Source: Thermosulfurimonas dismutans (GTDB taxonomy: Bacteria; Desulfobacterota; Thermodesulfobacteria; Thermodesulfobacteriales; Thermodesulfobacteriaceae). Taken from it: DNA of 32,000 bases. The stretch lies in assembly GCF_001652585.1 (NCBI RefSeq), contig NZ_LWLG01000001.1, positions 120,001 through 152,000 of the forward strand. Direction: 5' to 3'. Below, in pieces: positions 5,212 to 31,196 of this stretch (position 1 is its first letter; every line of letters starts with the position of its first letter). The position numbers and the translations under genes were made by a program. The notes under the pieces were generated by a model. That model did not search any database and was not told the origin of the DNA. It saw nothing but the letters and a program-made list of their open reading frames with translations.

Positions 5212-6021
5212 TCAATCCTTACCAAGTTCCCTTGATCGCCTAGTGGCTGCCGATACGGCCTCCATAACTGCGCCGTGAAAACCCCGGTCGGCCAGGGCCT
5301 TGAGACCGGTGATGGTAGTCCCTCCAGGAGAGGTCACCATCGCTTTAAGGGCATAGGGGTCCTTTCCGGTCTCTTTCATGAGCTTGGCCGCCCCGAGCAC
5401 GGTCTCAACCGCGAGCTTCTCCGCCACCTCCCTAGGGAGCCCCTCCTTGACGCCCCCATCCACTAGGGCCTCTATAAAGGCAAAAACGTAAGCCGGACCG
5501 CTTCCTGAAAGTCCGGTCACGGCGTCGAATAGAGTTTCCGGTAGCCTTACTACCTCTCCTAGGGCGGAAAAGATCTTCTCGGCAGTCTTCAGATCATCCT
5601 CGCTAGCCCCTGGGCCTTTACAGAGAGCGCTCACACCGGCCAGAACCAAGGCCGGCGTGTTGGGCATAACTCGCACGAGGCGAGCCCCTTCGCCCAAGAA
5701 TTGGGTCATCTGCGAGAGGGTCACGCCTGCAGCGATTGATATCAAGAGGGGTTGGTGTTCCTCCACCTTCGTACGAATCTCAGAAAGTACCTGAGGAACG
5801 ATTTGAGGTTTGACCGCCAGAATCACCACCGCGCATTTTTCAATAAGCTTGAGATTGTCAAATAAGACCTCAACTCCATATTTTTCGGCCAGAAAGGCCC
5901 TGCGGGACTCACTAGGCTCGGAAACCACCACTTCCTCTCCCTTAAAGACAGCAGCCGCAAGACCGCCTTTTATGATGGCTTCGGCCATCTGCCCCCCACC
6001 GATGAAGCCCACTTTCTCCAT
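5212..6021 (-). CDS. proC: pyrroline-5-carboxylate reductase
   Basis: MEKVGFIGGGQMAEAII Rossmann N-terminus and P5CR-like C-terminus (SPGGTTITGL). The ATG at 6021 has GGAGGAGG 6 nt upstream. The track start at 6039 adds 6 codons without an SD. Confidence 0.9.
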   Translation of the reverse strand: MEKVGFIGGGQMAEAIIKGGLAAAVFKGEEVVVSEPSESRRAFLAEKYGVEVLFDNLKLIEKCAVVILAVKPQIVPQVLSEIRTKVEEHQPLLISIAAGVTLSQMTQFLGEGARLVRVMPNTPALVLAGVSALCKGPGASEDDLKTAEKIFSALGEVVRLPETLFDAVTGLSGSGPAYVFAFIEALVDGGVKEGLPREVAEKLAVETVLGAAKLMKETGKDPYALKAMVTSPGGTTITGLKALADRGFHGAVMEAVSAATRRSRELGKD

Positions 6022-6131
6022 CCGAAACCTCCTCCACAAGGTCTCAAGTTAGTATACCACCTTTTTCCGATAATTATTTAGATGGCGGCCCTAATGACAA
6101 TTTTCCTTCAATCCCCTGACTTCCATAAGAC

Positions 6132-6186
6132 GGCCCCTCTTCAAAGTTACGGAGGAAATTTGCTGTGGTACCTCCCTTTGAAGGCC
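6132..6186. other. long bulged hairpin (about 16 bp, 15-nt loop) between tRNA-Leu and the proC promoter region
   Basis: GGCC/GGCC, TTCAAAG/CTTTGAA and GGAGG/CCTCC pair around the loop AAATTTGCTGTGGTA. There is no U-tract on either strand. Confidence 0.4.
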
Positions 6187-6206
6187 GCGAAGGACTTACT
6201 ATGCTT

Positions 6207-6293
6207 GGTGCCGAGGGCGGGAGTCGAACCCGCACGGGGGTAAACCCCAGCGGATTTTGAGTCCGCCGCGTCTGCCAGTTCCGCCACCTCGGC
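6207..6293 (-). tRNA. tRNA-Leu (anticodon CAA), long variable arm, encoded CCA
   Basis: The reverse complement GCCGAGGTGGCGGAACTGGCAGACGCGGCGGACTCAAAATCCGC...GCGGGTTCGACTCCCGCCCTCGGCACCA folds as a cloverleaf. Anticodon loop is CTCAAAA. T-arm is GCGGG/TTCGACT/CCCGC. Confidence 0.9.
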
Positions 6294-6406
6294 TTATTCC
6301 AAATTTTAAAATTATAGCTCCCATTGCGCAAGCGGGGGATTGCAGCCTCACCAAAAGAATTATCTTTTGAATTAAAGCCCCAAGGTGTTATGTTAAATGC
6401 CTACAG

Positions 6407-6937
6407 ATGTTAACCATAAAAAGGTTTAATACCCTCTCCAAGGAGCTCCTGGCGGCCCTGGTGGATCTTTACCAGGAAGCCTATCGGGATGATCCCACTT
6501 ACGCTTACCGGGAGCGTAAACGAATAAAGAGTTACCTTAAATGGCTTCTGCGCCACGCGCGGGGTGGTTTTTTTGTAGCCTTTGAGAAAGAAAAACCCGT
6601 AGGGTTCCTCGCCCTTGAGGAAATGGCCCCGGCGCCGGAAATTCATGAGATCGTAGTTCTTCCGGAATTTAAAGGCCAACACCTGGCCGAAAAGCTCATG
6701 GCCGAGGCTCTCTCTTACCTTCAGGCCAAGGGTTATTCGCGGGTGGCCCTGTGGGTGGGCGAACATAATCTAAGGGCCCAACGGTTTTACGAAAAATTCG
6801 GTTTTAAAAAGATCGGAAAGGACGGGATCTGGATTCGCATGGAAAAGAATCTTCAGGAGAAAGACTTGACGAGTTCCCACAAAACTGCAAAGGCTTCTTC
6901 CACCTCGGAAAGAGAGATGGTCTCCTCCGGGGTATGA
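6407..6937 (+). CDS. GNAT-family N-acetyltransferase
   Basis: The acetyl-CoA binding-like core is IVVLPEFKGQHLAEKLMAEAL...RFYEKFGFK. The last ~27 codons overlap the convergent M20 peptidase gene. Confidence 0.75.
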   Translation: MLTIKRFNTLSKELLAALVDLYQEAYRDDPTYAYRERKRIKSYLKWLLRHARGGFFVAFEKEKPVGFLALEEMAPAPEIHEIVVLPEFKGQHLAEKLMAEALSYLQAKGYSRVALWVGEHNLRAQRFYEKFGFKKIGKDGIWIRMEKNLQEKDLTSSHKTAKASSTSEREMVSSGV

Positions 6938-7926
6938 CAGAGGGTCAAATCCCCCGGTCCGAAAACCACGGCTTGGGTACCAGCCGCTGCTAGATGGGCA
7001 GCGTCCGTCCAGCTGGGCATCCCGGAAAGAATGGCTTCTTTGCAAAGGGCCTTCCCAATAGCCCTTTCCAGGGCCACGACTATCCGAGAATTCTTATCAA
7101 CATAGAAGGCCTCCGAAATATCCTTTATACGATAAGAAACCCAGGTGTATCTGTTTAACACGGCCTCAATGTCGGCGATAATACCCTTCAAGTCTTGTCC
7201 AGGAAGTATCCGGAACTCCAGTTCCAGTTCGGCCTTTTCGGGAACCCTTAAGAGCCCGTCCCCCCCGGAAAACTTTTCGATGTTGAGCCCTGCCGGCCCT
7301 ACCAGAGGATGTTCCTCGTAGAGAAAGGACAATCTCTTAAGCTCTCCAATGAGCTCTATAGCCCGTTCAATGGCGTTTGCTCCCCGGTAAGCCAGGCTCC
7401 CGTGAACGGAACGCCCCCTGACTTCCACCTCAAATTCCACGGACCCCCCTTCGGCAATGGCCACGGTGAGACTGGTGGGTTCAAGGACCACCGCATAGGG
7501 AAACCGGTATTCCTCGGCCAGCTTTGCCGAACCTCGGCCCTCATTTTCCTCATCTACCAGAAAGGCCAGGGCCACCGGGGGCTTCAGGCCTTCGGCTACA
7601 AGCCTCTCAGCCAGAACCATAAGGAGGGCCACTCCGGCCTTGGCGTCGCACACCCCTACCCCGAAGAGGCGGTCTTCTTCGGCTTTAGGCGGGAAGAGCC
7701 CCAGAGATAAAGGAACGGTATCCACATGGGTAGCCAAAAGCAACTCCGGCTGCTCGGAAAAAGATACATAGAGATTGGGAGAACAGCCCGGAACTTCCTG
7801 AAGACGATAAGGAATTCGCAACCGGGAAAGGTAATCCCCTATAAAGCGAAGGACCGCCTCTTCTTTTCCACTTTCACTGGGAATAGAAGCCAGACTTAAA
7901 ATAAGATCCTTAAAATAGGTCTTCAT
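6853..7926 (-). CDS. M20-family metallopeptidase / deacylase (ArgE/DapE-like)
   Basis: ATHVDTVP, GVGVCDAKAG and LVDEENEG are metal-ligand-like motifs of the M20 family. The start at 7926 (MKTYFKD) gives an ATGA overlap with the upstream stop. The track start at 7959 is less likely. Confidence 0.75.
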   Translation of the reverse strand: MKTYFKDLILSLASIPSESGKEEAVLRFIGDYLSRLRIPYRLQEVPGCSPNLYVSFSEQPELLLATHVDTVPLSLGLFPPKAEEDRLFGVGVCDAKAGVALLMVLAERLVAEGLKPPVALAFLVDEENEGRGSAKLAEEYRFPYAVVLEPTSLTVAIAEGGSVEFEVEVRGRSVHGSLAYRGANAIERAIELIGELKRLSFLYEEHPLVGPAGLNIEKFSGGDGLLRVPEKAELELEFRILPGQDLKGIIADIEAVLNRYTWVSYRIKDISEAFYVDKNSRIVVALERAIGKALCKEAILSGMPSWTDAAHLAAAGTQAVVFGPGDLTLCHTPEETISLSEVEEAFAVLWELVKSFS

Positions 7927-8672
7927 TTCCCTGGAGGCCCAAAAGTAATCAAAGGGCAATTACGACAGATATCTTCCCCCACAAGCCTAGGGCCTCCTAA
8001 GAAGGAAACCTTCCCCTCACGGGCTTTTTCCTCAAGGACTCTCAGTACGATCTTGAAGGCCTCGCCAGGAAAGGCCAAAATGAGCTCTCCTCTATCCATC
8101 TTTCCAGAAGAGAAGGCCCCCGGACAGGGGAAACTCATAACCGGATAACCCGTAAGGTAGGCCTTCACCATACTGCCACAGACCGCAGCGTTGGGATAGT
8201 GTGAAAGCGGAATTTCCGTCAATCCAGCCCCATAAAGATAAAAATCCAGAAGATGGGCGGCCTGCAGGGTATCCACCACCATGAGAACGACCTCTGGGTC
8301 CCGATAGGCCTTGGCAAGCGGCACAAATCCGAAGCCCCTAAACTCTCCCTCTTTTAGACGAGGCCTTTCCCGATAGAGTCTTTCCGCAGCCTCCGGCTGC
8401 AGAAACTTATGTAGAGTCTTCATGACGTTCTGTTCCCGATAGGGAAACCCCACCACAAAGGCCGCCGTCTGACAATGAAGATTCTCAGGAAGAAGGAGGA
8501 GGCTCTCCCCAACCTCCCTTACATGGGCCAGATACTGGCAGATGGAGAGCCGGTTTTTGGGCCGAGCCTCCGGCCGAAACTCTTCGTCTCCCCGGAGGAA
8601 AAAGACCGCTACGGGATCGTGATAGAGCCTCAGGGTCTTTAAAAGAAGTTCGGCGGCCTCATCCCAGCGCAT
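7923..8672 (-). CDS. DUF169-like protein of unknown function
   Basis: The N-terminus LRLYHDPVAVFFLRGDEEF...SICQYL resembles the DUF169 family from memory. The ATG at 8672 has GGAGGTG 5 nt upstream and overlaps the metG stop as TAATG. Confidence 0.6.
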   Translation of the reverse strand: MRWDEAAELLLKTLRLYHDPVAVFFLRGDEEFRPEARPKNRLSICQYLAHVREVGESLLLLPENLHCQTAAFVVGFPYREQNVMKTLHKFLQPEAAERLYRERPRLKEGEFRGFGFVPLAKAYRDPEVVLMVVDTLQAAHLLDFYLYGAGLTEIPLSHYPNAAVCGSMVKAYLTGYPVMSFPCPGAFSSGKMDRGELILAFPGEAFKIVLRVLEEKAREGKVSFLGGPRLVGEDICRNCPLITFGPPGK

Positions 8673-10567
8673 TAGCCCACCTCCGCTCCGCAAGCTATTT
8701 CTCCCTCTGGAACAATAAGTTTAAGTCCCTGGGCGTCCTTGGCCGCAAGGACCATTCCCTGGGAAACCACACCCCGGATCTTGGCTGGCTTGAGGTTGGC
8801 CACCAAAACTATCTTCTTGCCCACCAGAGTCTCCGGCGGATAGTATTCCGCAATACCGGCTACCACCGTCCTCTCCTCTGGGCACTTTACAGTCAGCTTG
8901 AGCAACCGATCCGTGCCCGGAACCCTTTCGGCGGCCACTACTTCGGCCACCCGCAAATCCCATTTCTTGAACTCCTCAATGGGATAAGTCTTATCTTCCA
9001 CGGTGGTTTCCTCCTTAGTTTTTTCGGATTCCGCTTTAAAGTCTGGCATCTCTAGCCTTGGAAAAAGGACTTTCCCCCTCTGGGTCTTTCCTCCGGGAGC
9101 AAGTAGGCCCCAGCTAAGGGCCCTTTCGAAGCGCAATTCTTCTTCCGGTGAAAGGCCAAGATTTATCAGGATCTTTTCCGAGGCCTTCGGCATCACCGGC
9201 GAAAAGGCCACCGAGAGAACCCGCAAGGCCTCAAGCAAGGTATAGAGTACCCGGGCAAGTCTTTCCTTGCGGCCTTCCTTGTTCAGCTGCCAAGGTGCCT
9301 GACGATCGATGTACTGATTGGCCGCCCCCACGGCCTCGGAAAGGGCCCCGAGCGCCCGATGGAATCGGAAGCCCTCCATCTCGCGGTCATAAGTTTTTAC
9401 GGCTGAAAGGATGGTCTCTCGGAGCGCACGATCCTCGGGGACCTCCTCACCGGGTTCAGGCACTTCGCCCCCGAAATATTTTTTTACCATGGTAAGCGTC
9501 CGATAAACCAAGTTTCCGAAGTCGTTAGCCAGCTCGGCGTTTAGGCGTCGAATTAGGGCCTCCTCGCTGAACTCGGCGTCGTAGCCGAAGGCCATCTCCC
9601 GCAGAAGGAAATATCGCACCTGATCTGCACCGTAGCGAGCTACCAAATCGTCCGGACGTACCACATTCCCGAGGCTCTTGGACATCTTGGCCTGGTTGAG
9701 ATTCCAGTAACCGTGGACATGAAGCCGTTTGAAGATCGGAAGTCCGATAGCCCGGAGCATGATGGGCCAGTAAAGGGCGTGGGGTTTCAAGATGTCCTTA
9801 GCGATAATGTGTTCGGCCGAGGCCCACCACTTCTGCCAGTTCGGATCCTCGGGGTAACCAATCCCGGAAAGGTAGTTGAGTAGAGCATCAAACCAGACGT
9901 AGGTCACGTATTCGGAATCAAAGGGGAATTCTATCCCCCAGGAAAGGCGACTCTTGGGACGTGAGATGCAGAGACGATCCAAAGGATCTCTCAGGAGCCC
10001 TAAAACCTCCTCCCGATAGTGGGGAGGCTGAATGAGATCCGGATTTGCCTTCAGATAATCCCTAAGCCAGTCCTGATACTTGGAGAGATCAAAGAAGTAA
10101 TTACTTTCTTTAAGCGGCGTTGGAGGGATTTTGTGATCTGGGCACTTTCCGTCTTCGAGCTCCTTTTCGGTGAGGAAACGTTCGCAGCCAAAACAATAAA
10201 GCCCTTCGTATTCACCAAAGGAAATATCTCCCTGATCGTAAAGTTTCTGGAGAACTAGCTGGACCACCTTTTGGTGATAGGGTTCGGTAGTACGAATAAA
10301 ACGGGAGTAATTAATATGTAATATGGGCCAAGTTTCTCGAAACTTTTGGGAGATCCGATCAACGTATTCTTTGGGGGTAAGGCCCTGGGCTTTGGCAGCC
10401 TTGACGATCTTGTCACCGTGTTCATCAGTCCCAGTAAGGAAGAAGACCTCTTCGCCTTTGAGGCGCTTGAACCGGGCCACTACATCCGCTACCACCGTGG
10501 TGTAGGCGTGCCCCAGGTGAGGCTCGGCGTTTACGTAATAGATAGGGGTAGTCACGTAAAAGGCCAT
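8672..10567 (-). CDS. metG: methionyl-tRNA synthetase with C-terminal tRNA-binding (EMAP/Trbp111-like) domain
   Basis: MAFYVTTPIYYVNAEPHLGHAYTT (HIGH region), AKMSKSLGN (KMSKS), and a C-terminal KWDLRVAEVVAAERVPGTDRLLKLTV OB-fold tail. Confidence 0.92.
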   Translation of the reverse strand: MAFYVTTPIYYVNAEPHLGHAYTTVVADVVARFKRLKGEEVFFLTGTDEHGDKIVKAAKAQGLTPKEYVDRISQKFRETWPILHINYSRFIRTTEPYHQKVVQLVLQKLYDQGDISFGEYEGLYCFGCERFLTEKELEDGKCPDHKIPPTPLKESNYFFDLSKYQDWLRDYLKANPDLIQPPHYREEVLGLLRDPLDRLCISRPKSRLSWGIEFPFDSEYVTYVWFDALLNYLSGIGYPEDPNWQKWWASAEHIIAKDILKPHALYWPIMLRAIGLPIFKRLHVHGYWNLNQAKMSKSLGNVVRPDDLVARYGADQVRYFLLREMAFGYDAEFSEEALIRRLNAELANDFGNLVYRTLTMVKKYFGGEVPEPGEEVPEDRALRETILSAVKTYDREMEGFRFHRALGALSEAVGAANQYIDRQAPWQLNKEGRKERLARVLYTLLEALRVLSVAFSPVMPKASEKILINLGLSPEEELRFERALSWGLLAPGGKTQRGKVLFPRLEMPDFKAESEKTKEETTVEDKTYPIEEFKKWDLRVAEVVAAERVPGTDRLLKLTVKCPEERTVVAGIAEYYPPETLVGKKIVLVANLKPAKIRGVVSQGMVLAAKDAQGLKLIVPEGEIACGAEVG

Positions 10568-11482: not shown

Positions 11483-12844
11483 ATGAAAAAATGGAAACAG
11501 ATACTTCGCATCCTCTTCATCCTAGATCTAGAAGATGGCCGTCTAAATCTCTTTGAATCCTTCCCGTTCATCAAACGTTTCTTTTACAACCGTAAATATT
11601 TCGCATGGATTCGGACTTTTGGAGACTTGGTTTTCGTAATTCTTATCCTTCTGGGGCTTTTGGGGCCTCAAGATCCCCAGCGAAATGTAATGCTTTTCCT
11701 GGCCTGGGGTATCTGGTGGACCAGCGTGGTCCTTTCCTGGTTTTTCGTAGGCCGAATGTGGTGTGCCTTTTGTCCCTTTCCAGGACTCGGAAGGCTACTT
11801 CAAAACCTGGGACTCTCCCGTTTCAAAAACCCTCCCAAATGGCTGACCTGCAAAGGCCTACATTTGGCCACGGCTCTCTTCTTTCTCATCATATGGGCCG
11901 AAACTGTTACCGACATGAAACACTCTCCTTTCTTGACGGCTCTTTTGCTGCTTTCCATCGTTCTGGGAGCTACGCTTATGGGAGTCCTGTACCGAGGCTA
12001 CACTTGGTGCCGCTATCTGTGCCCTTTTGGAAAAATCACCGGTTCCGCAGCCACTATGGCTCTTACCGAGTTTCGGTCCGACTACGAAAAATGCAAGGAT
12101 TGTAAGACCTTCTCTTGCCGACGGGGCAGGGATAAGATCCGTCCCTGTCCAGTTTTTTTAGGGGCTTACCACGCTAAAAACAATCTAGTCTGCCTGGTTT
12201 GCGGACACTGCCTTATCCTGTGCGAGAGAGATTCACCGGCTCTTTATCTTCGTCATCCTCTGCGGGAACAGATCATCAACAAGGGACGCTACATTACCTG
12301 CGGCTATGTTATTCCCCTCCTTATGGGCTCTCAGTTGGCCCGTTTCATTTATGAAACCCCTTACTTCACCTGGTTCGAAAATCTTCTCGGTTTCGGTAAG
12401 GCCGTCACCTTCACTTTCCTGTTCGCTGTAGGGACCTTGTTCTTCATAGAACTTATTAAAGGAGGTTCCATTCTTTTTACTTACTATGAGGACGAGCTTT
12501 TTGGACGCTTTTCGCCTATGGTTCCGGTAGTTATGCCTTTGGCTTTCACCGGAGAGCTCGTCTATCGCCTTCGATATTTTCTCGAGGAATTGGGCAACTT
12601 TTTACCTACCCTTGGAAGACAATTCCATATTTCCTTCTTGATTTCCTATCAATTCGAAGTCCCTCCTTTTTGGATAAAAACAATTTCCTATTTTCTAATC
12701 TTTTTGGGCCTTACCGGCGGATTCTATGTAGCTTGGTATTTTTACAAAAAAGAATTTGAAGGCTTAGTGCCTTTTAAAAATTACCTTTTTATCAATCTTC
12801 TACTCGTTTTTTGCGGAGGCCTCTACCTTTTCTTCCAGCCTTAA
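11483..12844 (+). CDS. polytopic membrane protein with NapH/polyferredoxin-like Fe-S binding motifs
   Basis: WCAFCPFPG and WCRYLCPFG are membrane-edge CxxCP motifs. They are followed by CKDCKTFSCRRG...CP and CLVCGHCLILC ferredoxin-like clusters and then extra C-terminal TM helices. No SD is present. A perfect TATAAT at 11470-11475 ends 7 nt before the ATG, so the mRNA may be leaderless. Confidence 0.7.
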   Translation: MKKWKQILRILFILDLEDGRLNLFESFPFIKRFFYNRKYFAWIRTFGDLVFVILILLGLLGPQDPQRNVMLFLAWGIWWTSVVLSWFFVGRMWCAFCPFPGLGRLLQNLGLSRFKNPPKWLTCKGLHLATALFFLIIWAETVTDMKHSPFLTALLLLSIVLGATLMGVLYRGYTWCRYLCPFGKITGSAATMALTEFRSDYEKCKDCKTFSCRRGRDKIRPCPVFLGAYHAKNNLVCLVCGHCLILCERDSPALYLRHPLREQIINKGRYITCGYVIPLLMGSQLARFIYETPYFTWFENLLGFGKAVTFTFLFAVGTLFFIELIKGGSILFTYYEDELFGRFSPMVPVVMPLAFTGELVYRLRYFLEELGNFLPTLGRQFHISFLISYQFEVPPFWIKTISYFLIFLGLTGGFYVAWYFYKKEFEGLVPFKNYLFINLLLVFCGGLYLFFQP

Positions 12845-12889
12845 AAAACAACCTCTATGAAACCCCTTCATTTTATAAATAAAATCAAT

Positions 12890-12917
12890 TTGACCATAGA
12901 TTCTGTCTATTTATAAT
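12890..12917 (+). promoter_or_regulatory. sigma-70-like promoter TTGACC-N16-TATAAT for the exported DsrE-like gene
   Basis: TTGACC at 12890-12895 and TATAAT at 12912-12917. AGGAGG and the ATG at 12952 lie downstream. Confidence 0.5.
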
Positions 12918-12951
12918 GGCCCCTAAAAAACCTAAAAAAGGAGGTGCTAGG

Positions 12952-13350
12952 ATGAAAAGGTGGGTAGGGTTGTTGTTAGGTTTGTTTTTGTTGGTAGCTT
13001 TCCCTTTCACCAATGCCAAGGCCGAGGGCTCACATTGGGTTATAGTTATCTCTACCAAGGAGAAAGAGACGGCCTGGAACGCTCTCAGGGTAGCCGACTT
13101 CGCTTTGAAGCAAGGGGCCAAGGTCTCTGTTTTCTTATTGGGTGAGGGAGTTAAGGCCTCGGTAATAGAAGATGAGACCTTCAATGTAAAGAAGGCCCTT
13201 GAACATTTTGTTAAAGAAGGAGGTAAGGTTTATGCTTGCAGAGCGTGCCTGAAGATTCACCATTTAAAACCTACTGAAACCTGCCCGGTTGGAACACGAA
13301 AGATCCTTTATGATCTAATCTCGCAGGCAGACCGCATTTTAACCTTTTAA
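12952..13350 (+). CDS. exported DsrE/TusD (YchN-fold)-like protein, Cys form (paralog 1)
   Basis: MKRWVGLLLGLFLLVAFPFTNAKA is signal-peptide-like. The mature part aligns with the ORFs at 29404 and 29755, with the motif GGKVYACRACLK. The ATG at 12952 has AGGAGG upstream, and the track start at 12916 sits inside the -10 box. Confidence 0.8.
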   Translation: MKRWVGLLLGLFLLVAFPFTNAKAEGSHWVIVISTKEKETAWNALRVADFALKQGAKVSVFLLGEGVKASVIEDETFNVKKALEHFVKEGGKVYACRACLKIHHLKPTETCPVGTRKILYDLISQADRILTF

Positions 13351-17961: not shown

Positions 17962-18036
17962 TCCGGGGTCGTCTAACTGGCAGGACATGGGACTTTGGCT
18001 CCCAGAATCCTGGTTCGAATCCAGGCCCCGGAACCA
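17962..18036 (+). tRNA. tRNA-Gln (anticodon UUG), encoded CCA
   Basis: TCCGGGGTCGTCTAACTGGCAGGACATGGGACTTTGGCTCCCAGAATCCTGGTTCGAATCCAGGCCCCGGAACCA. Anticodon loop is CTTTGGC. Confidence 0.88.
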
Positions 18037-26455: not shown

Positions 26456-27640
26456 TCAAGATTTCAAAATTTCCCGAAGAATTTCGTAAACCGCATCTAT
26501 TTCACGATAGGCCACGGTAAGAGGCGGGGAAAAGCGGATCACCTCCGTTTTGGGAGCAGTCGCAAGCACCCGTCTTTCAAACAGGGCCTGCACCACATCG
26601 CCTGCCGGGATCCGGACCTCAAGACCCAGAAGAAGGCCGAGCCCCCTCACCCCGGAGACCTTGTCCGGGAACTCCTCCGCCAGAGCGGAGAGCCTTTTAC
26701 GCAAGGCCTGGCCTTTGAGCCTTACCTCTTCAAGGAAACCCTCGGAAAGCACTATTTTCATCACCGCTACGGCTGCGGCACAGGCCACGGGGTTTCCCCC
26801 GAAGGTGGAGGCGTGAGAGCCTGGAGTAAGGGCTGACATGACCTTTTCTTTGGCCAATATCGCCCCCAGGGGAAGTCCCCCCGCAAGCCCCTTGGCCAGG
26901 CACATGATGTCCGGCACAATACCATAGTGTTCATAGGCAAAAAGGTGTCCGGTACGGCCGATACCGGTCTGGATCTCGTCAAAGATGAGGAGGGCCTGAT
27001 AGCGGTCACAGAGGCTCCGGGCCTCAAGGAGAAACTCCCGGGAAAGGGGGATTACCCCTCCCTCACCCAGTACAGGCTCAAGGATCACGGCACAGGTACT
27101 CTCGTTTACGGCCTCCCGCAGGGCTTCACGGTCGTTTGGCGGAACGTGCACGAAGTCCGGAACCAGGGGCTCAAAGCCCTCCCAGTAGACAGGCTGGCCG
27201 GTAGCCGAAAGCGCCCCATAGGTGCGACCGTGAAAAGAATTTTCAAGGGCCACCATCTGGGTTTTGCCAGGACCGTGGTTAAGATAGCTCCAGCGGCGGG
27301 CGAGTTTCAGGGCCGCTTCCACGGCCTCGGCCCCGGAATTGCAAAAGAAGACCCTCTCGCCGAAGGAATTCTCTACCAGAATCTCGGCCAGTCTGGCTTG
27401 CGGTTCAGTCCAGTAAAGGTTTGAGACGTGGAGAAGCTTTTCGGCTTGCTCCTTGATGGCCGAGACCACGGGCTCAGGGGCATGCCCTAGGGTACAGACC
27501 GCAATCCCGGCACAGAAATCTAGGTACTCGCGTCCTTCCTCGTCCCAAAGTCGGGAGCCCTTCCCCCGGACAAAGGCTACCGGAAACCTCTTGTAATTTT
27601 GGGCTAGATAAAGCTCTCCCAGGTCTTTGATGATCGCCAT
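26456..27640 (-). CDS. argD: acetylornithine aminotransferase (class III PLP aminotransferase)
   Basis: NSGAEAVEAALKLAR, LIFDEIQTGIGRTG and HASTFGGNP motifs. Confidence 0.85.
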   Translation of the reverse strand: MAIIKDLGELYLAQNYKRFPVAFVRGKGSRLWDEEGREYLDFCAGIAVCTLGHAPEPVVSAIKEQAEKLLHVSNLYWTEPQARLAEILVENSFGERVFFCNSGAEAVEAALKLARRWSYLNHGPGKTQMVALENSFHGRTYGALSATGQPVYWEGFEPLVPDFVHVPPNDREALREAVNESTCAVILEPVLGEGGVIPLSREFLLEARSLCDRYQALLIFDEIQTGIGRTGHLFAYEHYGIVPDIMCLAKGLAGGLPLGAILAKEKVMSALTPGSHASTFGGNPVACAAAVAVMKIVLSEGFLEEVRLKGQALRKRLSALAEEFPDKVSGVRGLGLLLGLEVRIPAGDVVQALFERRVLATAPKTEVIRFSPPLTVAYREIDAVYEILREILKS

Positions 27641-27668
27641 TATTAGTATTCCTCTCTTTTAGAATTTG

Positions 27669-27690
27669 AAAATCTGTTATAAAAGATTTT
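27669..27690. promoter_or_regulatory. 7-8-7 inverted repeat AAAATCT-gttataaa-AGATTTT overlapping a TATAAA box just upstream of arsR (candidate autoregulatory operator)
   Basis: Perfect 7-bp arms at 27669-27675 and 27684-27690. TATAAA lies at 27678-27683. Confidence 0.4.
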
Positions 27691-27693
27691 GAC

Positions 27694-27987
27694 GTGGGAG
27701 GAAAGGGGCCCTTGAATCAGCTAACGCTCTTCTTCAAAACCCTTGGGGACGAAAACCGTCTGAAGATCCTTTACGAGTTGCAAAAGGAAAAAGAACTCTC
27801 CGTAGGTGAACTGGTAGAAAGGCTGGAGATCTCCCAGCCGCTAGCATCCCATCATCTGAGGGAACTAAAGATGTCCGGACTGGTAACAACCAGAAAAAAA
27901 GGACCCTACGTCTTCTATCGCCTTAAAAATCCCCGAATCTTTGAACTGATAGCCCTAGCCCAATCCATACTGGAGGAGCAAGCATGA
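27694..27987 (+). CDS. ArsR/SmtB-family HTH regulator lacking any Cys
   Basis: FKTLGDENRLKILYEL...SVGELVERLEISQPLASHHLRELKMSGLV. The start is ambiguous: GTG at 27694, or TTG at 27712, which has GGAGG 10 nt upstream. Confidence 0.85.
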   Translation: MGGKGPLNQLTLFFKTLGDENRLKILYELQKEKELSVGELVERLEISQPLASHHLRELKMSGLVTTRKKGPYVFYRLKNPRIFELIALAQSILEEQA

Positions 27988-28427
27988 AATCGAGACTCAA
28001 GCATCTCCTCAAGGAGGCCTCCCTGGAGGAAATGAAAGAAGCCCTATTTTTCCTTCTTTCTCAAATTTACGCCCTCCTCGACGAAAAGGAACAGCAAACC
28101 TTCTTCCTGGAAATGTTTAAAGGCGAGGAGGGTAAGGTCCCTTCCATGGTATATTACTGACTGGCCAAGTGTTTCGACGCGGGCGTGGACCCGCGTTCAG
28201 TTTGTCGGGGCATAGTTTCAGCGGTAGGCGAAAAGGAAAGTCTTCCGGAAGAAGTCCCTGAATCCCTGAAACTCCTTTTCGAGGAATGGTTAGACGAACT
28301 TACCGAGGAGGCTCGTCGAATTACTGCTCAAAGAGCCCCTCTGTCCACCCCAGAGCTAGCGAAATACTTACGTATCTCTAAAGAAGGTGCGGAATACATT
28401 AGAGAACGCCTTAAAAGAATCTCTTGA
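27984..28427 (+). CDS. candidate selenoprotein: 147-codon read-through ORF (in-frame TGA = Sec59, motif YY-U-LAKC) with an HTH-like C-terminus
   Basis: The ATG at 27984 (GGAGGA 6 nt upstream, ATGA overlap with the arsR stop) opens a 58-codon frame ending at TGA 28158-28160. The same frame stays open for 88 more codons, which the track shows only as a GTG-started ORF at 28185. Those codons contain no ATG, and the 28185 GTG has no SD upstream. A hairpin follows the TGA. Confidence 0.62.
28176..28197 (+). promoter_or_regulatory. SECIS-like hairpin 15-16 nt after TGA 28158
   Basis: (G)ACGCGGG-CGTGGA-CCCGCGT(T). This gives 7 Watson-Crick pairs plus a closing G-U, and the loop contains GU/GG. Confidence 0.55.
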
Positions 28428-28546
28428 TAGAAGATATCCTCCCGAAAAGCTCCTATTCGTCTCTCTTTGCTACCCAAAAACCCTAATTTTTTAGGAATTC
28501 TTACTTCCTGACATAAAAGATGCGACCAATGGTCCCATAGCAGGAC

Positions 28547-28575
28547 TTGACTATTTAAACAAATTTTTATATAAA
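28547..28575 (+). promoter_or_regulatory. sigma-70-like promoter TTGACT-N17-TATAAA for the Cys-rich/DsrE-like operon
   Basis: TTGACT at 28547-28552 and TATAAA at 28570-28575. The -10 box lies within an 8-8-8 A/T inverted repeat, ATTTTTAT-ataaatag-ATAAAAAT (28563-28586). Confidence 0.5.
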
Positions 28576-28648
28576 TAGATAAAAATACATTGATACATTA
28601 AAATGAGAAAGACCTTCTTAAACAAAACCGGTTGATGTCACCCAAAAG

Positions 28649-28666
28649 GTTCCCCAGTAGGGGAGC
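28649..28666 (+). promoter_or_regulatory. hairpin GTTCCCC-AGTA-GGGGAGC, 13 nt after in-frame TGA 28633 (possible third SECIS)
   Basis: 7-bp stem including one G-U, with loop AGUA. It sits between an ATG at 28603 and the GTG at 28687, which are in the same frame. Confidence 0.35.
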
Positions 28667-28686
28667 AAGCTTCCGAAAGAAAAAAG

Positions 28687-29382
28687 GTGCACTGTTCGAT
28701 TTGCGGTCAGCCTTTGATTTATCTTACCAAAGAAAGAAAAGAAAAATGCTTCTATTGCAAACAAGAAAAATCAGCCTATGTCGTATGCCCTGAAAACCAT
28801 TTTGTCTGCGACGACTGTCACGGGAACGAAATAAAAGCGGCCTTAAAACAAGAAGCATTCAAGGCTCAGACCCCCGACCCGATAAAACTATCTCTTCTTT
28901 GGCTTAAAAAGTACCCCTTCCCCATGCTAGGGTGTGAACATGCCTATTTAGCGGCGAGCTCATTATTAGGATCTCTGGTAGCTGCCGGTTTTAGCCTTTC
29001 GAAAGGAGACCTGGAAGAGGTGTTCTCCCGAATAGACCTCCAGGCTAGAGGTGGCTTTTGCGGGCTTACTGGCATTTGCGGCATAGTGCCAGCCCTAGGA
29101 GCCTCTCTCGCCATCCTTAACAGTTCACACTGCGGAACTGACCGAGAACAACGCGAAGTTATGGAACTTACAAGTGACCTCCTTAAGAAATTTGCGGAGT
29201 TAACCGGTCCTAGCTGTTGTAAAGCCTATCTTTGGGCAGGCTTGGAGGTTGTCACCAAAAGAATCAAGGCTTTTTATCCTCAGGTTAACCTCAGAACTTC
29301 CTCTCCCCTTTGCTTCTTCTCAAAGACGCATCCTCACGGTTGCAGACAAGAAAAGTGTCCATACTTTAACACGTTTAAATAA
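28687..29382 (+). CDS. Cys-rich protein with N-terminal zinc-ribbon (CxxC...CxxC...CPxxHxxCxxCH); resembles DUF5714 from memory
   Basis: MHCSICGQPL...CFYCKQE...CPENHFVCDDCHG, then GGFCGLTGICG, GPSCCKAY and a C-terminal HGCRQEKCPYF. The GTG start has a poor SD. A possible N-terminal extension reaches ATG 28603 through TGA 28633. Confidence 0.7.
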   Translation: MHCSICGQPLIYLTKERKEKCFYCKQEKSAYVVCPENHFVCDDCHGNEIKAALKQEAFKAQTPDPIKLSLLWLKKYPFPMLGCEHAYLAASSLLGSLVAAGFSLSKGDLEEVFSRIDLQARGGFCGLTGICGIVPALGASLAILNSSHCGTDREQREVMELTSDLLKKFAELTGPSCCKAYLWAGLEVVTKRIKAFYPQVNLRTSSPLCFFSKTHPHGCRQEKCPYFNTFK

Positions 29383-29403
29383 TATTTCTTAAGGAGGTAA
29401 GCC

Positions 29404-29724
29404 ATGAAACTAGGAATCATTCTTACAACCAAAGAACCCGAAAAGGCCTGGAATGCCATGCGACTGGCAAACTTTGCCCTCAAAGCTGGGGACGAGGTCA
29501 AGGTCTTTTTAACAGGAGAGGGCGTAGAAGCCTCGGAAGTGGCTGATGATAAGTTCAACATCAAACAAGAGATGAACAAGTTTCTAGAAGGGGGAGGCCA
29601 GATTCTGGCCTGTGGCACCTGTCTAAAATTACGCCACAAAGAGGCCTCGGAGATCTGCCCCCTTTCCACCTTGGAGGATCTTTATAGGTTAATTCTTCTC
29701 TCGGAAAAAGTTTTGACCTTTTAG
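29404..29724 (+). CDS. cytoplasmic DsrE/TusD (YchN-fold)-like protein, Cys form (paralog 2)
   Basis: MKLGIILTTKEPEKAWNAMRLANFALKAGDEVKVFLTGEGV...GGQILACGTCLKLRH. AAGGAGG lies 6 nt upstream and there is no signal peptide. Confidence 0.85.
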   Translation: MKLGIILTTKEPEKAWNAMRLANFALKAGDEVKVFLTGEGVEASEVADDKFNIKQEMNKFLEGGGQILACGTCLKLRHKEASEICPLSTLEDLYRLILLSEKVLTF

Positions 29725-29754
29725 ACCTAAATCTTACATAAGGAGGTGGAGACC

Positions 29755-30156
29755 ATGCGTGTTCCCAAATGGATCTTAGGATTCTGGTTGGTAGGCTGTC
29801 TCCTTTTATGGACTGGGGATCTTAAGGCCGACGAAGGTCGAAAGCTCCTCCTAGTGATCACCACCAACGAAACGGAAACGGTCTGGCAGGCTCTAAGACT
29901 ATCTAATTTTGCAATCTCTCAAGGTGACGAAGTGCGCATCTACCTTACCGGGAAAGGGGTTGAGCTCCTCAAAATGGACAATAGCCCTTTAGATGTAGCC
30001 CAAAAACTTGAAAGTTTTTTGAAAAATGGAGGCGAAGTCTATGGTTGAAAAAAGGCCCTTAAGATGCACGGTGTGCATTCCGAGAAAGTAAAACCTGCGG
30101 GCAAGAAGGCGTTTTACCAGATGATCTGGGAAAGTGAGAAAGTCCTGGTCTATTAA
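29755..30156 (+). CDS. exported DsrE/TusD-fold selenoprotein candidate (paralog 3; TGA 30046-30048 = Sec98 replacing the active-site Cys)
   Basis: The track ORF stops at TGA 30046. The same frame continues KKALKMHGVHSEKVKPAGKKAFYQMIWESEKVLVY to TAA 30154-30156. Gapless alignment to paralog 2 places the TGA on the first Cys of ACGTC. The post-TGA residues L, K, P and SEKVL are conserved with the paralogs. A hairpin follows the TGA. The ATG at 29755 has AAGGAGG upstream, and MRVPKWILGFWLVGCLLLWTGDLKA is signal-peptide-like. Confidence 0.82.
30064..30078 (+). promoter_or_regulatory. SECIS-like hairpin ATGCAC-GGT-GTGCAT, 15 nt after TGA 30046
   Basis: Perfect 6-bp stem with apical GGU. A possible lower stem CTT/GAG lies beyond an internal loop (30058-30084). 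Confidence 0.6.
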
Positions 30157-30164
30157 AATCATAA

Positions 30165-30239
30165 TGGCTGGGGGACCAGGATTCGAACCTGGACTGGCGG
30201 GTCCAGAGCCCGCTGTCCTGCCGATTAGACGATCCCCCA
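30165..30239 (-). tRNA. tRNA-Gln (anticodon CUG), encoded CCA
   Basis: The reverse complement is TGGGGGATCGTCTAATCGGCAGGACAGCGGGCTCTGGACCCGCCAGTCCAGGTTCGAATCCTGGTCCCCCAGCCA. Anticodon loop is CTCTGGA. Confidence 0.88.
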
Positions 30240-30260
30240 GCTGCCAAGCTTAATTATAAT

Positions 30261-31196
30261 TTAGCCCTCTTTGAGGTCAAGGGTTGCTATCTTGAGAGTG
30301 AGAAAGGGAGTAGCCTGAAGTTCATAATCCCGGGCCAGGGAGGCCGCCATCCCTAGAACTTTCCTGAGCCCTCCCAGGGTCAACCGGTCAAAATTTAGCC
30401 GGAGGCCACCTTCGGAGATCAGGGTTAGCTCTCCGGAGAAGCCCTCGATCTCAACCGGTACGGTCTCCCCGGGCTCAGGGAAGATCACCTCTCCCGAAAA
30501 CTCCTCTTCGAAATCCGAGGGATCGAGGACATTGAAGCTCACCTCTCCAAGCCGGTCAGAGAGACCGGCCTGATAGCGTAGTTTATTCAAAAGGGCTTCA
30601 GGATGGGGCAGGGTGTATGTCTTCCCGCTTTCAAAGGTACTCAGAAACTCCGTAGGTTTAAGGCGCCTCTTAGAAGTAGGATAGGGCAGGATCCCCGAAA
30701 GGGAGGCCAGCGTCTCTTCGGACACCCGCACCTGCCGAAACTCGGAAAGCCCGGCTTCGCGAATAGCTTCCCGCCAGAAACGATCACGCTCAAAATCCCG
30801 ACTCTCGTAGTCGTATTCGTAATAAACGGCTTTAATGCCTGCTGAAGCAATGAGTTTCAGGCACACGTAACAAGGGGCTAGGGTACAATAAAGTTCTGCA
30901 CCTTCCACCGAGATTCCAAACCGGGCCGCTTGGGCAATGGCGTTGGCCTCGGCGTGAGTGGCCCGACAAAAGTTGTATTTGTCTATGTCCGGGATCCCCT
31001 TTTCCCTGCGGAAGCAATACTCTGGCCCACGATCCGTGCAGTGCCAAGCCCCAGGCATAGGGCCATTGTAACCCGTGGCTAAAATTCTCTTGTCCTTCAC
31101 GATCACCGCGCCCGAGGGTCTAGAATTGCACCCCGAACGCAAGGCTACCATCTTGGCAAGCAACATGAAGTATTCTTGCCAGGGAGGTCGCTTCAT
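30261..31196 (-). CDS. dCMP deaminase (ComEB-type zinc deaminase) with ~150-aa C-terminal extension of unknown function
   Basis: WQEYFMLLAKMVALRSGC, THAEANAI and the PCYVCLKLI zinc motifs in the first ~150 aa. I recognise no family in the remainder. Confidence 0.8.
   Translation of the reverse strand: MKRPPWQEYFMLLAKMVALRSGCNSRPSGAVIVKDKRILATGYNGPMPGAWHCTDRGPEYCFRREKGIPDIDKYNFCRATHAEANAIAQAARFGISVEGAELYCTLAPCYVCLKLIASAGIKAVYYEYDYESRDFERDRFWREAIREAGLSEFRQVRVSEETLASLSGILPYPTSKRRLKPTEFLSTFESGKTYTLPHPEALLNKLRYQAGLSDRLGEVSFNVLDPSDFEEEFSGEVIFPEPGETVPVEIEGFSGELTLISEGGLRLNFDRLTLGGLRKVLGMAASLARDYELQATPFLTLKIATLDLKEG

Follow-up and report, generated by a model that had tools for sequence, protein, structure and literature searches.

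A locus with three in-frame TGA codons

In this study, we analyzed a stretch of 32,000 nucleotides (nt) of the Thermosulfurimonas dismutans genome (contig NZ_LWLG01000001.1, positions 120,001 to 152,000; hereafter named the window), and in particular the locus found at 27669-30156 on its plus strand. Five genes follow one another there, coding for an ArsR-family regulator, a TsoA-like protein, a DUF5714 protein, a DsrE-like protein of the Cys form and a second DsrE-like protein predicted to be exported. An aminotransferase gene flanks the locus on one side, and a tRNA-Gln gene on the other. Three of the five genes contain an in-frame TGA, at positions 28158, 28633 and 30046 (UGA-1 to UGA-3), and the reading frames stay in phase across all three. 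The best explanation overall, and a likely one given the comparisons reported below, is that of a TsoR/TsoA-type selenoprotein operon, in which the three UGAs would be read as selenocysteine (Sec).

Features of the locus are collected in Table 1. A first-pass annotation of this DNA had described a Cys-free ArsR protein, a translationally coupled read-through open reading frame (ORF) behind it, and three phase-keeping TGAs, each with its hairpin. All of these are present, the coupling being visible as an ATGA at 27984-27987, where the TGA stop of arsR overlaps the ATG of the TsoA-like gene. The same annotation stated that standard ORF calling truncates or splits all three TGA genes, and this is what public annotation does: the T. 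dismutans entries (99-100% identity) are two "hypothetical" proteins of 80 and 97 amino acids (aa) and a "DUF5714 domain protein" of 231 aa. Two of its boundaries had to be revised. The promoter region placed ahead of the DUF5714 gene was kept, and its length of 259 nt becomes a gap of 175 nt if this gene starts at ATG 28603. For the exported DsrE gene, ATG 29755, with a Shine-Dalgarno (SD) sequence (AAGGAGGT) 7 nt upstream, was preferred to the GTG at 29746 first proposed. A tRNA-Gln(CUG) gene at 30165-30239 (minus strand) directly ends the locus, and this boundary is kept in T. marina and in a syntenic metagenome-assembled genome (MAG). No other convincing gene with an in-frame TGA was found in the window.

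Table 1. Features of the T. dismutans locus (window coordinates; SECIS, selenocysteine insertion sequence)
Feature	Position	Strand	Evidence or remark
Near-palindrome, 22 bp, AAAATCTGTTA/TAAAAGATTTT	27669..27690	no strand	arms 11/11 nt, 91% complementary
TsoR-like ArsR/SmtB repressor gene, 97 aa, Cys-free	27694..27987	+	Pfam HTH_5 3.3e-15; synteny in all related loci
Predicted TsoA-like selenoprotein gene, 147 aa, Sec59	27984..28427	+	NCBIfam TsoA NF045695 96.8 bits; conserved TGA
UGA-1 (28158-28160) and SECIS-like hairpin 28176-28197, 8 bp, loop CGUGGA	28158..28197	+	
Candidate promoter region of effector genes	28547..28602	+	motif kept across 6 loci; inverted repeat
DUF5714/MbdU-like Cys-rich protein gene, 259 aa from ATG 28603, predicted Sec11 (KTG-U-CHP)	28603..29382	+	Pfam DUF5714 3.6e-35
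UGA-2 (28633-28635) and SECIS-like hairpin 28649-28666, 7 bp, loop AGUA	28633..28666	+	
Cytoplasmic DsrE-like protein gene, Cys form, 106 aa (ILA-C-GT-C-LKLR...ICP)	29404..29724	+	Pfam DsrE 1.3e-10
Predicted exported DsrE-like selenoprotein gene, 133 aa, Sec98 (EVYG-U-KKALKMHGV)	29755..30156	+	Pfam DsrE 1e-8
UGA-3 (30046-30048) and SECIS-like hairpin 30064-30078, 6-7 bp, loop GGU	30046..30079	+	G·U pair extends stem to 30063-30079

Conservation and structure around the TGA codons

Comparisons bearing on recoding draw on 20 or more related loci. Among them are T. marina (L001, CP042909), a Thermosulfurimonas MAG with full synteny (L006/L007) and short contigs from metagenomes (L002-L005, L008 and L009). 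A scan of a genome collection with the TsoA-like alignment added 15 loci, from Thermosulfurimonas, Thermodesulfatator, Thermodesulfobacteriaceae, Desulfocapsa, Desulfobulbus and Desulfobulbaceae MAGs. In keeping with the read-through first proposed, orthologous loci do not end at the TGAs: codon and downstream frame are both kept in Thermosulfurimonas, Thermodesulfatator, Desulfocapsa and Desulfobulbaceae.

UGA-1 (28158) very probably encodes Sec, to judge by the family in which it occurs. The T. dismutans TsoA-like protein has the motif MVYY-U-LAKC-FDAGVDPRSV-C (i.e. U-x3-C...C, with Sec59). The TGA is retained in 16/16 TsoA-like genes, which fall into four motif classes (YY*LAKC, NL*LAEC, EY*INEC and EH*IAEC) and share the consensus M-V-x-x-U-[LI]-[AN]-x-C-x-[DG]-x-G-V-[DN]-P...C around it. 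LAKCFDAG is constant in the protein although its codons change synonymously; there being no start codon after the TGA, translation has to run through it. Purifying selection after the TGA is strong, with proportions of nonsynonymous and synonymous differences (pN and pS, Nei-Gojobori) of 0.12-0.26 versus 0.59-0.88. The hairpin is the same in every distinct LAKC-type sequence recovered. In six of these sequences, none of the 7 third-codon positions inside the hairpin varies, versus 6 of 8 in its flanks (P=0.0056). Other TsoA-like clades have a different stem with the same GG(Y)GUG apex; covariation across clades was dropped as a measure, the stems being out of register between them (apex offset of 3 nt), and the hairpin was judged instead by this within-clade suppression of synonymous variation.

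The TsoA family seems, from its sequences, to be Sec-only, without Cys members: no Cys homolog at the Sec column was found among 18 matches in 1.84 billion representatives, these matches being mostly post-TGA fragments. One database protein, P0116 (152 aa), is homologous to TsoA over its full length and has Trp in the Sec column (MVHL-W-LAEC). Most likely, this Trp comes from a pipeline reading TGA as Trp, and P0116 illustrates that some metagenome protein sets conceal selenoproteins behind Trp.

For UGA-3 (30046), we are equally confident that Sec is encoded. The Pfam DsrE match of the exported protein (35.8 bits, cut-off 22.7, residues 30-132) runs across the TGA. Codon and C-terminus (HGV...VLVY) are conserved in four loci (L001, L006, L009 and L014), and a cytoplasmic Sec form (KG-U-GKLMEIHGV) is found in four others (L002, L008, L017 and L018); the TGA is kept in 8 Sec-type DsrE genes from at least 6 lineages. 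Selection after it is again strongly purifying (pN 0.07-0.15 versus pS 0.63-0.75, same method). The first-pass annotation had suggested looking for Cys at the aligned columns. This Cys is present in the DsrE family, where the Sec column corresponds to the first Cys of A-C-G-x-C in 4/4 Cys forms; none was found for TsoA, and none is conserved at the DUF5714 N-terminus. Within the locus itself, the first Cys of the DsrE protein encoded at 29404-29724 lines up with Sec98 of the next gene product. Sec forms have lost the second, resolving Cys and also the later "CP" Cys. The UGA-3 hairpin has 93.9% of its cells paired across 7 sequences, with compensatory double changes in 3 pairs (G-C to C-G, A-U to C-G), and its covariation score was reached by 4/500 shuffles. 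Residues flanking H-G-V also co-vary at the codon level (M...H, I...D, L...E). The N-terminus of the exported protein is a signal-like segment; a lipoprotein reading (LVGC) was rejected, its Cys not being conserved in orthologs.

The window contains a second exported DsrE-like gene, at 12916-13350 (plus strand). It is of the Cys form (VYA-C-RA-C-LKIHH...CP), and its product is the closest Cys counterpart of the exported Sec protein in the genome. It lies directly 3' of a gene coding for a 453-aa protein with a Fer4_5 (NapH/NosR-like) 4Fe-4S domain, and this pairing (11483-13350) suggests electron delivery to a periplasmic CxxC protein of DsrE fold. The region (plus strand) has a low G+C content (0.43-0.46), as has the selenoprotein locus.

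UGA-2 (28633) probably encodes Sec as well, and is the weakest of the three cases because the window offers a GTG start downstream of the TGA. The protein belongs to a DUF5714 subfamily in which the N-terminal in-frame TGA is present in 17/17 lineages, each with the same layout: an ATG, 4-17 codons, the TGA, 11-31 codons and the zinc-ribbon CxxC. The upstream ATG is preceded by a strong SD in several of them. A hairpin of the UGA-2 type stands at the same distance across the 17 lineages, except in L010, where the stem adjoins the TGA, and in L027, where it is missing from the minimum free energy fold. Double changes affect 5 of 7 pairs in the Desulfobulbales clade, where none of 500 shuffles reached the covariation score. 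The AlphaFold2 (AF2) model (mean predicted local distance difference test score, pLDDT, 92.9) consists of a zinc ribbon and a helical Cys-rich domain, and no fold match was found for it in the PDB.

It could be argued that the operon has two selenoproteins only: TGA 28633 would stop a leader ORF of 10 codons, the DUF5714 protein would start at GTG 28687 (231 aa, without Sec), and the hairpin after the leader would be a regulatory or stability element. This GTG is usable, stands one codon ahead of the first Cys and is the start used in public annotation, and ATG 28603 has no SD in the window. Purifying selection, strong after UGA-1 and UGA-3, is hardly seen here: the next 17 codons, up to the essential zinc-ribbon Cys, have evolved in a nearly neutral way. 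DUF5714 homologs with ordinary N-termini also lack a conserved Cys at the Sec11 column. Against this stands the fact that 11 of the 17 lineages have no ATG, GTG or TTG between the TGA and the near-invariant first zinc-ribbon Cys, so that the zinc ribbon would be truncated. The TGA has remained in frame in T. marina despite an 18-nt indel, the hairpin covaries at a SECIS-like spacing, and a "C-U-G" dyad is conserved in Desulfobulbales and groundwater relatives, "CU" being covered by the MbdU profile. We therefore hold a leader ORF to be unlikely, and UGA-2 is treated below as a probable Sec codon.

DUF5714 relatives with up to three in-frame TGAs were seen in a Desulfobulbaceae MAG (L019, 2148-3400) and also in L012 and L021. 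The three TGAs lie in an N-terminal C-U-G, in an AhpD-like G-C-E-P-U-TRHC and in a C-terminal ACS[FS]-U-T-stop, and thus exceed the two Sec implied by the MbdU name.

The three stem-loops, whose pairing is perfect or nearly so, each start 13-16 nt 3' of their UGA, with a UGA-to-loop distance of about 21-24 nt. We defined a hairpin rule requiring at least 6 bp, at most 1 G·U pair, at least 3 G-C pairs, a loop of 3-8 nt with G in its first two positions, and a stem start 10-21 nt after the TGA. This rule is met by 3/3 in-frame TGAs, by 27 of the 883 TGA trinucleotides of the window (3.1%) and by 2.9% of all window positions; having been set post hoc, it gives rates that are indicative. Since, in addition, single-sequence folding z-scores are weak and unremarkable, the comparative data carry the recoding case. 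They bear out the SECIS-like layout first described, the hairpins being retained as structures through compensatory changes (UGA-2 and UGA-3) or suppressed synonymous variation (UGA-1). The hairpins were also said not to be intrinsic terminators, and this was confirmed: a scan for G+C-rich hairpins with a U-tract found no terminator-like site on the plus strand in 27500-30400. Canonical bacterial SECIS (bSECIS) elements of the E. coli fdhF/fdnG type are stem-loops just 3' of the UGA within the coding sequence, for which a model is reportedly due to Zhang and Gladyshev (2005). The candidates here share with them the intragenic position 3' of the UGA and the G (often GU) opening the apical loop; they differ by their short stems (6-8 bp), the absence of an assignable bulged U, and the lack of a match to Rfam or curated models. 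SelB-dependent recoding would decode all three UGAs, each directed by its downstream stem-loop.

It is very improbable that the TGAs are true stops, with the genes split or pseudogenes and the hairpins coincidental or serving mRNA stability. Standard callers and public annotation do end the genes there, folding energies of single sequences are unexceptional, and decayed genes are indeed present in T. marina: its DUF5714 ortholog (L001, 6329-7200) has an internal deletion of about 50 codons in the zinc ribbon and a 1-nt frameshift, and its cytoplasmic Cys-DsrE gene is frameshifted. These lesions, which may mean that the locus is partly decayed or that the assembly has indels, fall elsewhere in the genes, away from the TGAs, and TsoR, the TsoA-like gene and the exported Sec-DsrE gene are intact. 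Lineages with saturated synonymous sites share the TGA at the same codon, strong purifying selection acts 3' of it, compensatory changes keep the hairpins, and termination at UGA-3 would deprive the DsrE fold of its last helix and strand. A genome-wide reassignment of TGA to Trp or Gly (code 4/25-like, with no SECIS needed), for which the Trp of P0116 could be invoked, is excluded for practical purposes because TGA ends 10 of the 27 family-supported genes of the window, including arsR, where it overlaps the next start codon.

Several further points weigh against the reading as a TsoR/TsoA-type selenoprotein operon. Sec status across these families is an in silico prediction. No selA, selB or selD gene and no tRNA-Sec lies within the 32-kb window, and an Rfam scan of 27600-30300 (E up to 10) returned the tRNA-Gln alone and no SECIS family. 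Scores against the curated NCBIfam models stay below cut-off for the regulator (TsoR NF045707, 87 bits, cut-off 115), for the TsoA-like protein (NF045695, 96.8 bits over nearly its full length, cut-off 170) and for the DUF5714 protein (MbdU NF045648, 260 bits, cut-off 600, profile positions 31-268 of 468), and the sole model that the regulator passes is the generic one of the ArsR/SmtB subfamily (HTH_metalloreg, 91 bits, cut-off 55). Finally, the decayed DUF5714 and Cys-DsrE genes appear to be dispensable in T. marina.

Relation to known families and modules

Haft and Tolstoy are said to have described, in mSystems in 2025 (10:e0141724), the Tso "three selenoprotein operon" (TsoR, TsoA, TsoB and TsoC). 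A 2026 review credits them with this work and lists the TsoR, TsoA and MbdU families, TsoB, TsoC, TsoX and TsoY, and an older DsrE-like selenoprotein (UxxC) (PMC13188914). Our comparison rests on that review and on the NCBIfam models NF045707, NF045695, NF045694 and NF045708. The T. dismutans locus resembles Tso in that an ArsR/SmtB regulator is directly followed by a small selenoprotein with U-L-A-x-C, in that the best NCBIfam matches of these two genes are TsoR and TsoA, in grouping several selenoprotein genes, and in its Desulfobacterota/Thermodesulfobacteriota host. It differs, beyond the scores below cut-off, by the motif YULAKC instead of LULAxC (the core U-L-A-x-C is kept and the leading L replaced by Y), and by effectors of the DUF5714 and DsrE types instead of TsoB and TsoC. 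No match to TsoB (rhodanese/DsbD-like) or TsoC (NEPxGxxU) was found among 25 window proteins searched with NCBIfam, five further small ORFs being covered by a Pfam scan alone.

In both MbdU ("CU", 2 Sec) and the T. dismutans protein, a zinc ribbon and a helical Cys-rich domain make up the DUF5714 core, and a predicted Sec falls among the first 10-20 residues or so. The latter is devoid of the C-terminal half carrying the second Sec, and so has one candidate Sec; its dyad is "UC" (TG-U-C) and not "CU", and it has a possible non-Sec start. A DsrE-like selenoprotein family (PF02635, UxxC) was reportedly recognized by Kryukov and Gladyshev in 2004 and by Zhang and Gladyshev. Our proteins have the same fold, with Sec where Cys homologs have the active-site Cys, but their motifs are U-K-K-A and U-G-K-[LI], without a second Cys, rather than UxxC (paralogs having CxxC), and one form has an N-terminal signal-like segment. 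None of the NCBIfam models picks up these proteins, and they are rare, with 7 matches in a search of 5.8 billion proteins.

Persulfide-stress operons are controlled by ArsR- or CsoR-family sensors such as BigR, SqrR and CstR. As in these operons, an ArsR-family repressor (53.7 bits with the BigR model) is found here beside DsrE-type sulfurtransferase domains, and a TauE-type exporter follows in related loci. The locus differs from them by having no persulfide dioxygenase or sulfide:quinone oxidoreductase, and by a candidate sensor that is a separate selenoprotein; TsoR, being devoid of Cys, cannot itself sense by di- or tetrasulfide formation. The YTD cluster of sulfur disproportionators consists of yedE-tusA-dsrE and conserved hypothetical proteins (PMC9676032, PMC12998232). 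Its DsrE-related genes occur in the same organisms, Thermosulfurimonas included, but yedE and tusA are absent from the selenoprotein locus, which is a separate one with another regulator.

The system is thus less new than the first-pass annotation implied, the TsoR, TsoA, MbdU and DsrE-like families being already in NCBIfam or the literature: the operon is a below-threshold, differently composed variant of these families, and not a categorically new one. What it adds is twofold. First, annotation wrongly presents the three T. dismutans genes as fragments, and likewise those orthologous to them in Thermosulfurimonas, Thermodesulfatator, Desulfocapsa and Desulfobulbaceae MAGs; the curated models miss them. 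Second, the TsoR/TsoA pair is not bound to TsoB and TsoC, and recurs with DUF5714/MbdU-like and Sec DsrE effectors, with or without TauE, which redefines what the "Tso" regulator pair controls. By tblastn, the module ArsR, TsoA-like, DUF5714 was found in 10 loci, and the module ArsR, TsoA-like, DsrE in 6, the window locus combining both types. TauE adjoins the DsrE module in L002, L015 and L016.

One Desulfocapsa MAG (L018) holds one module of each type, back to back on one contig (1962-3938, minus strand, and 5639-6803, plus strand). The first consists of ArsR, an EY-U-INEC TsoA-like protein and DUF5714; the second, of ArsR, a bona fide TsoA (LULAEC) that passes NF045695 (188.9 bits, cut-off 170), and a cytoplasmic Sec-DsrE. 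TsoB and TsoC do not, therefore, come after every true TsoA.

Regulation and possible function

The C-terminal domain of TsoA is of the winged helix-turn-helix (HTH) type. Pfam HTH_24 is matched by 10/17 family members (best E 1.1e-6), and the family profile matches Lrp/AsnC-type HTH chains (E 1.6e-4), FeoC, MntR and AdcR. An AF2 model, which covers the C-terminal 88 aa alone, fits HTH domains, with 40-47 residues superposing at about 1 Å. TsoR has no sensory residues, and the TsoA-like protein translated with it has a Sec/Cys triad and an HTH; we therefore propose that the two may form a repressor/sensor pair, in which the Cys-free TsoR-like ArsR and the translationally coupled TsoA-like protein would act together. 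A stronger version, in which the TsoA family as a whole would be a Sec-containing DNA-binding sensor, its Sec triad and winged HTH making a two-protein switch with the Cys-free ArsR, seems doubtful at present. If true, Sec rather than Cys would be the ligand- or redox-sensing residue of the switch, and selenium supply would gate the regulon too, in a family seemingly without Cys members. We found no description of a Sec-dependent transcription regulator in the accessible literature, and the HTH domain makes such a Sec-based regulator directly testable.

Candidate control elements lie upstream of both gene groups. Ahead of the effector genes, a TTGACT -35 box (28547-28552) is found with an A/T-rich -10 region, and a 13-2-13 imperfect inverted repeat (28551-28578) is a candidate ArsR-type operator. 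The motif CTTGAC...AAATA..TATGTT is conserved in effector promoters across 6 loci. There is also a weak promoter-like match at 28576-28604, and the effector leader is short and devoid of SD. Upstream of arsR, the near-palindrome at 27669-27690 would be a candidate operator overlapping a TATAAA box, but this role is speculative, conservation of the repeat not being evident in the orthologs inspected. Two cases of crowding were observed, a -10-like box very near the ATG in L009 (1-40) and the TATAAA very near GTG 27694 in the window (27678-27696). Since promoter boxes crowd the start codons, leaderless or very short-leader mRNAs are likely.

For the locus as a whole, the following chain of events can be envisaged. 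The Sec/Cys triad of TsoA would react with a thiophilic ligand; this would lift repression at the conserved promoter and inverted repeat 5' of the effector genes; and the effectors, DUF5714(Sec), DsrE(Cys) and exported DsrE(Sec), would bind or relay the ligand in cytoplasm and periplasm. As for the ligand class, we lean, tentatively, toward sulfane sulfur or polysulfide, possibly selenium, in preference to soft metals. The context on the sulfur side comprises the DsrE fold, TauE beside the module, and hosts that disproportionate or reduce sulfur.

The same three selenoproteins could instead handle a soft metal or metalloid (Hg, Cu/Ag, As or similar), with Sec/Cys sites as metal ligands and TsoR/TsoA as a metalloregulatory pair. 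The regulator is of the ArsR/SmtB family and has no sensory Cys, and the curators' names, "metalloregulator" for TsoR and "metal-binding double selenoprotein" for MbdU (NF045648), point to metals. The review assigns most of these new selenoproteins to metal or metalloid resistance (PMC13188914). In Desulfobulbales loci, Met-rich proteins stand between ArsR and TsoA-like genes, and RND, ABC and OEP efflux genes beside DUF5714 relatives; TsoA C-terminal-domain variants with a Met-rich N-terminus exist, and AhpD- or ArsM-type domains are fused to DUF5714 relatives. But the metal names are themselves in silico inferences, the T. dismutans locus has no metal transporter, TauE permeases lie 3' of the DsrE module in three loci, and two effectors here are of the DsrE fold, and those DsrE/TusD proteins that have been characterised are persulfide carriers. 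On balance, metal handling is a serious but somewhat less likely alternative, and we retain sulfane sulfur as the tentative choice.

To our knowledge, none of the first steps of elemental sulfur (S0) activation in sulfur disproportionators has been established. The exported DsrE-fold protein, with its lone predicted Sec, is a candidate for periplasmic capture of polysulfide or sulfane sulfur in these organisms. T. dismutans also has TDIS_RS01570, listed as a Sec-type MccSep, i.e. a bioinformatically assigned homolog of the Sec-dependent polysulfide reductase (PMC13510729). This listing lends indirect support to the use of Sec in the species.

The small Met-rich proteins of the Desulfobulbales loci are of the MxxM type (e.g. 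MEMMEKMMGQTPMGDMMNGMM) and were located at about 1139-1526 in L012, 7480-7803 in L021 and 42-389 in L026. In two other proteins, P0118 and P0126, homologous to the TsoA C-terminal domain, a Met-rich N-terminus replaces the Sec motif. These neighbours and variants hint at ligands of the Cu/Ag/Hg type.

Elsewhere in the window, a DUF169 (COG2043) protein without NCBIfam match is encoded at 7923-8693 (minus strand), between an ArgE/DapE-family deacylase gene and metG, and a second tRNA-Gln gene, with anticodon UUG, is found at 17962-18036 (plus strand).

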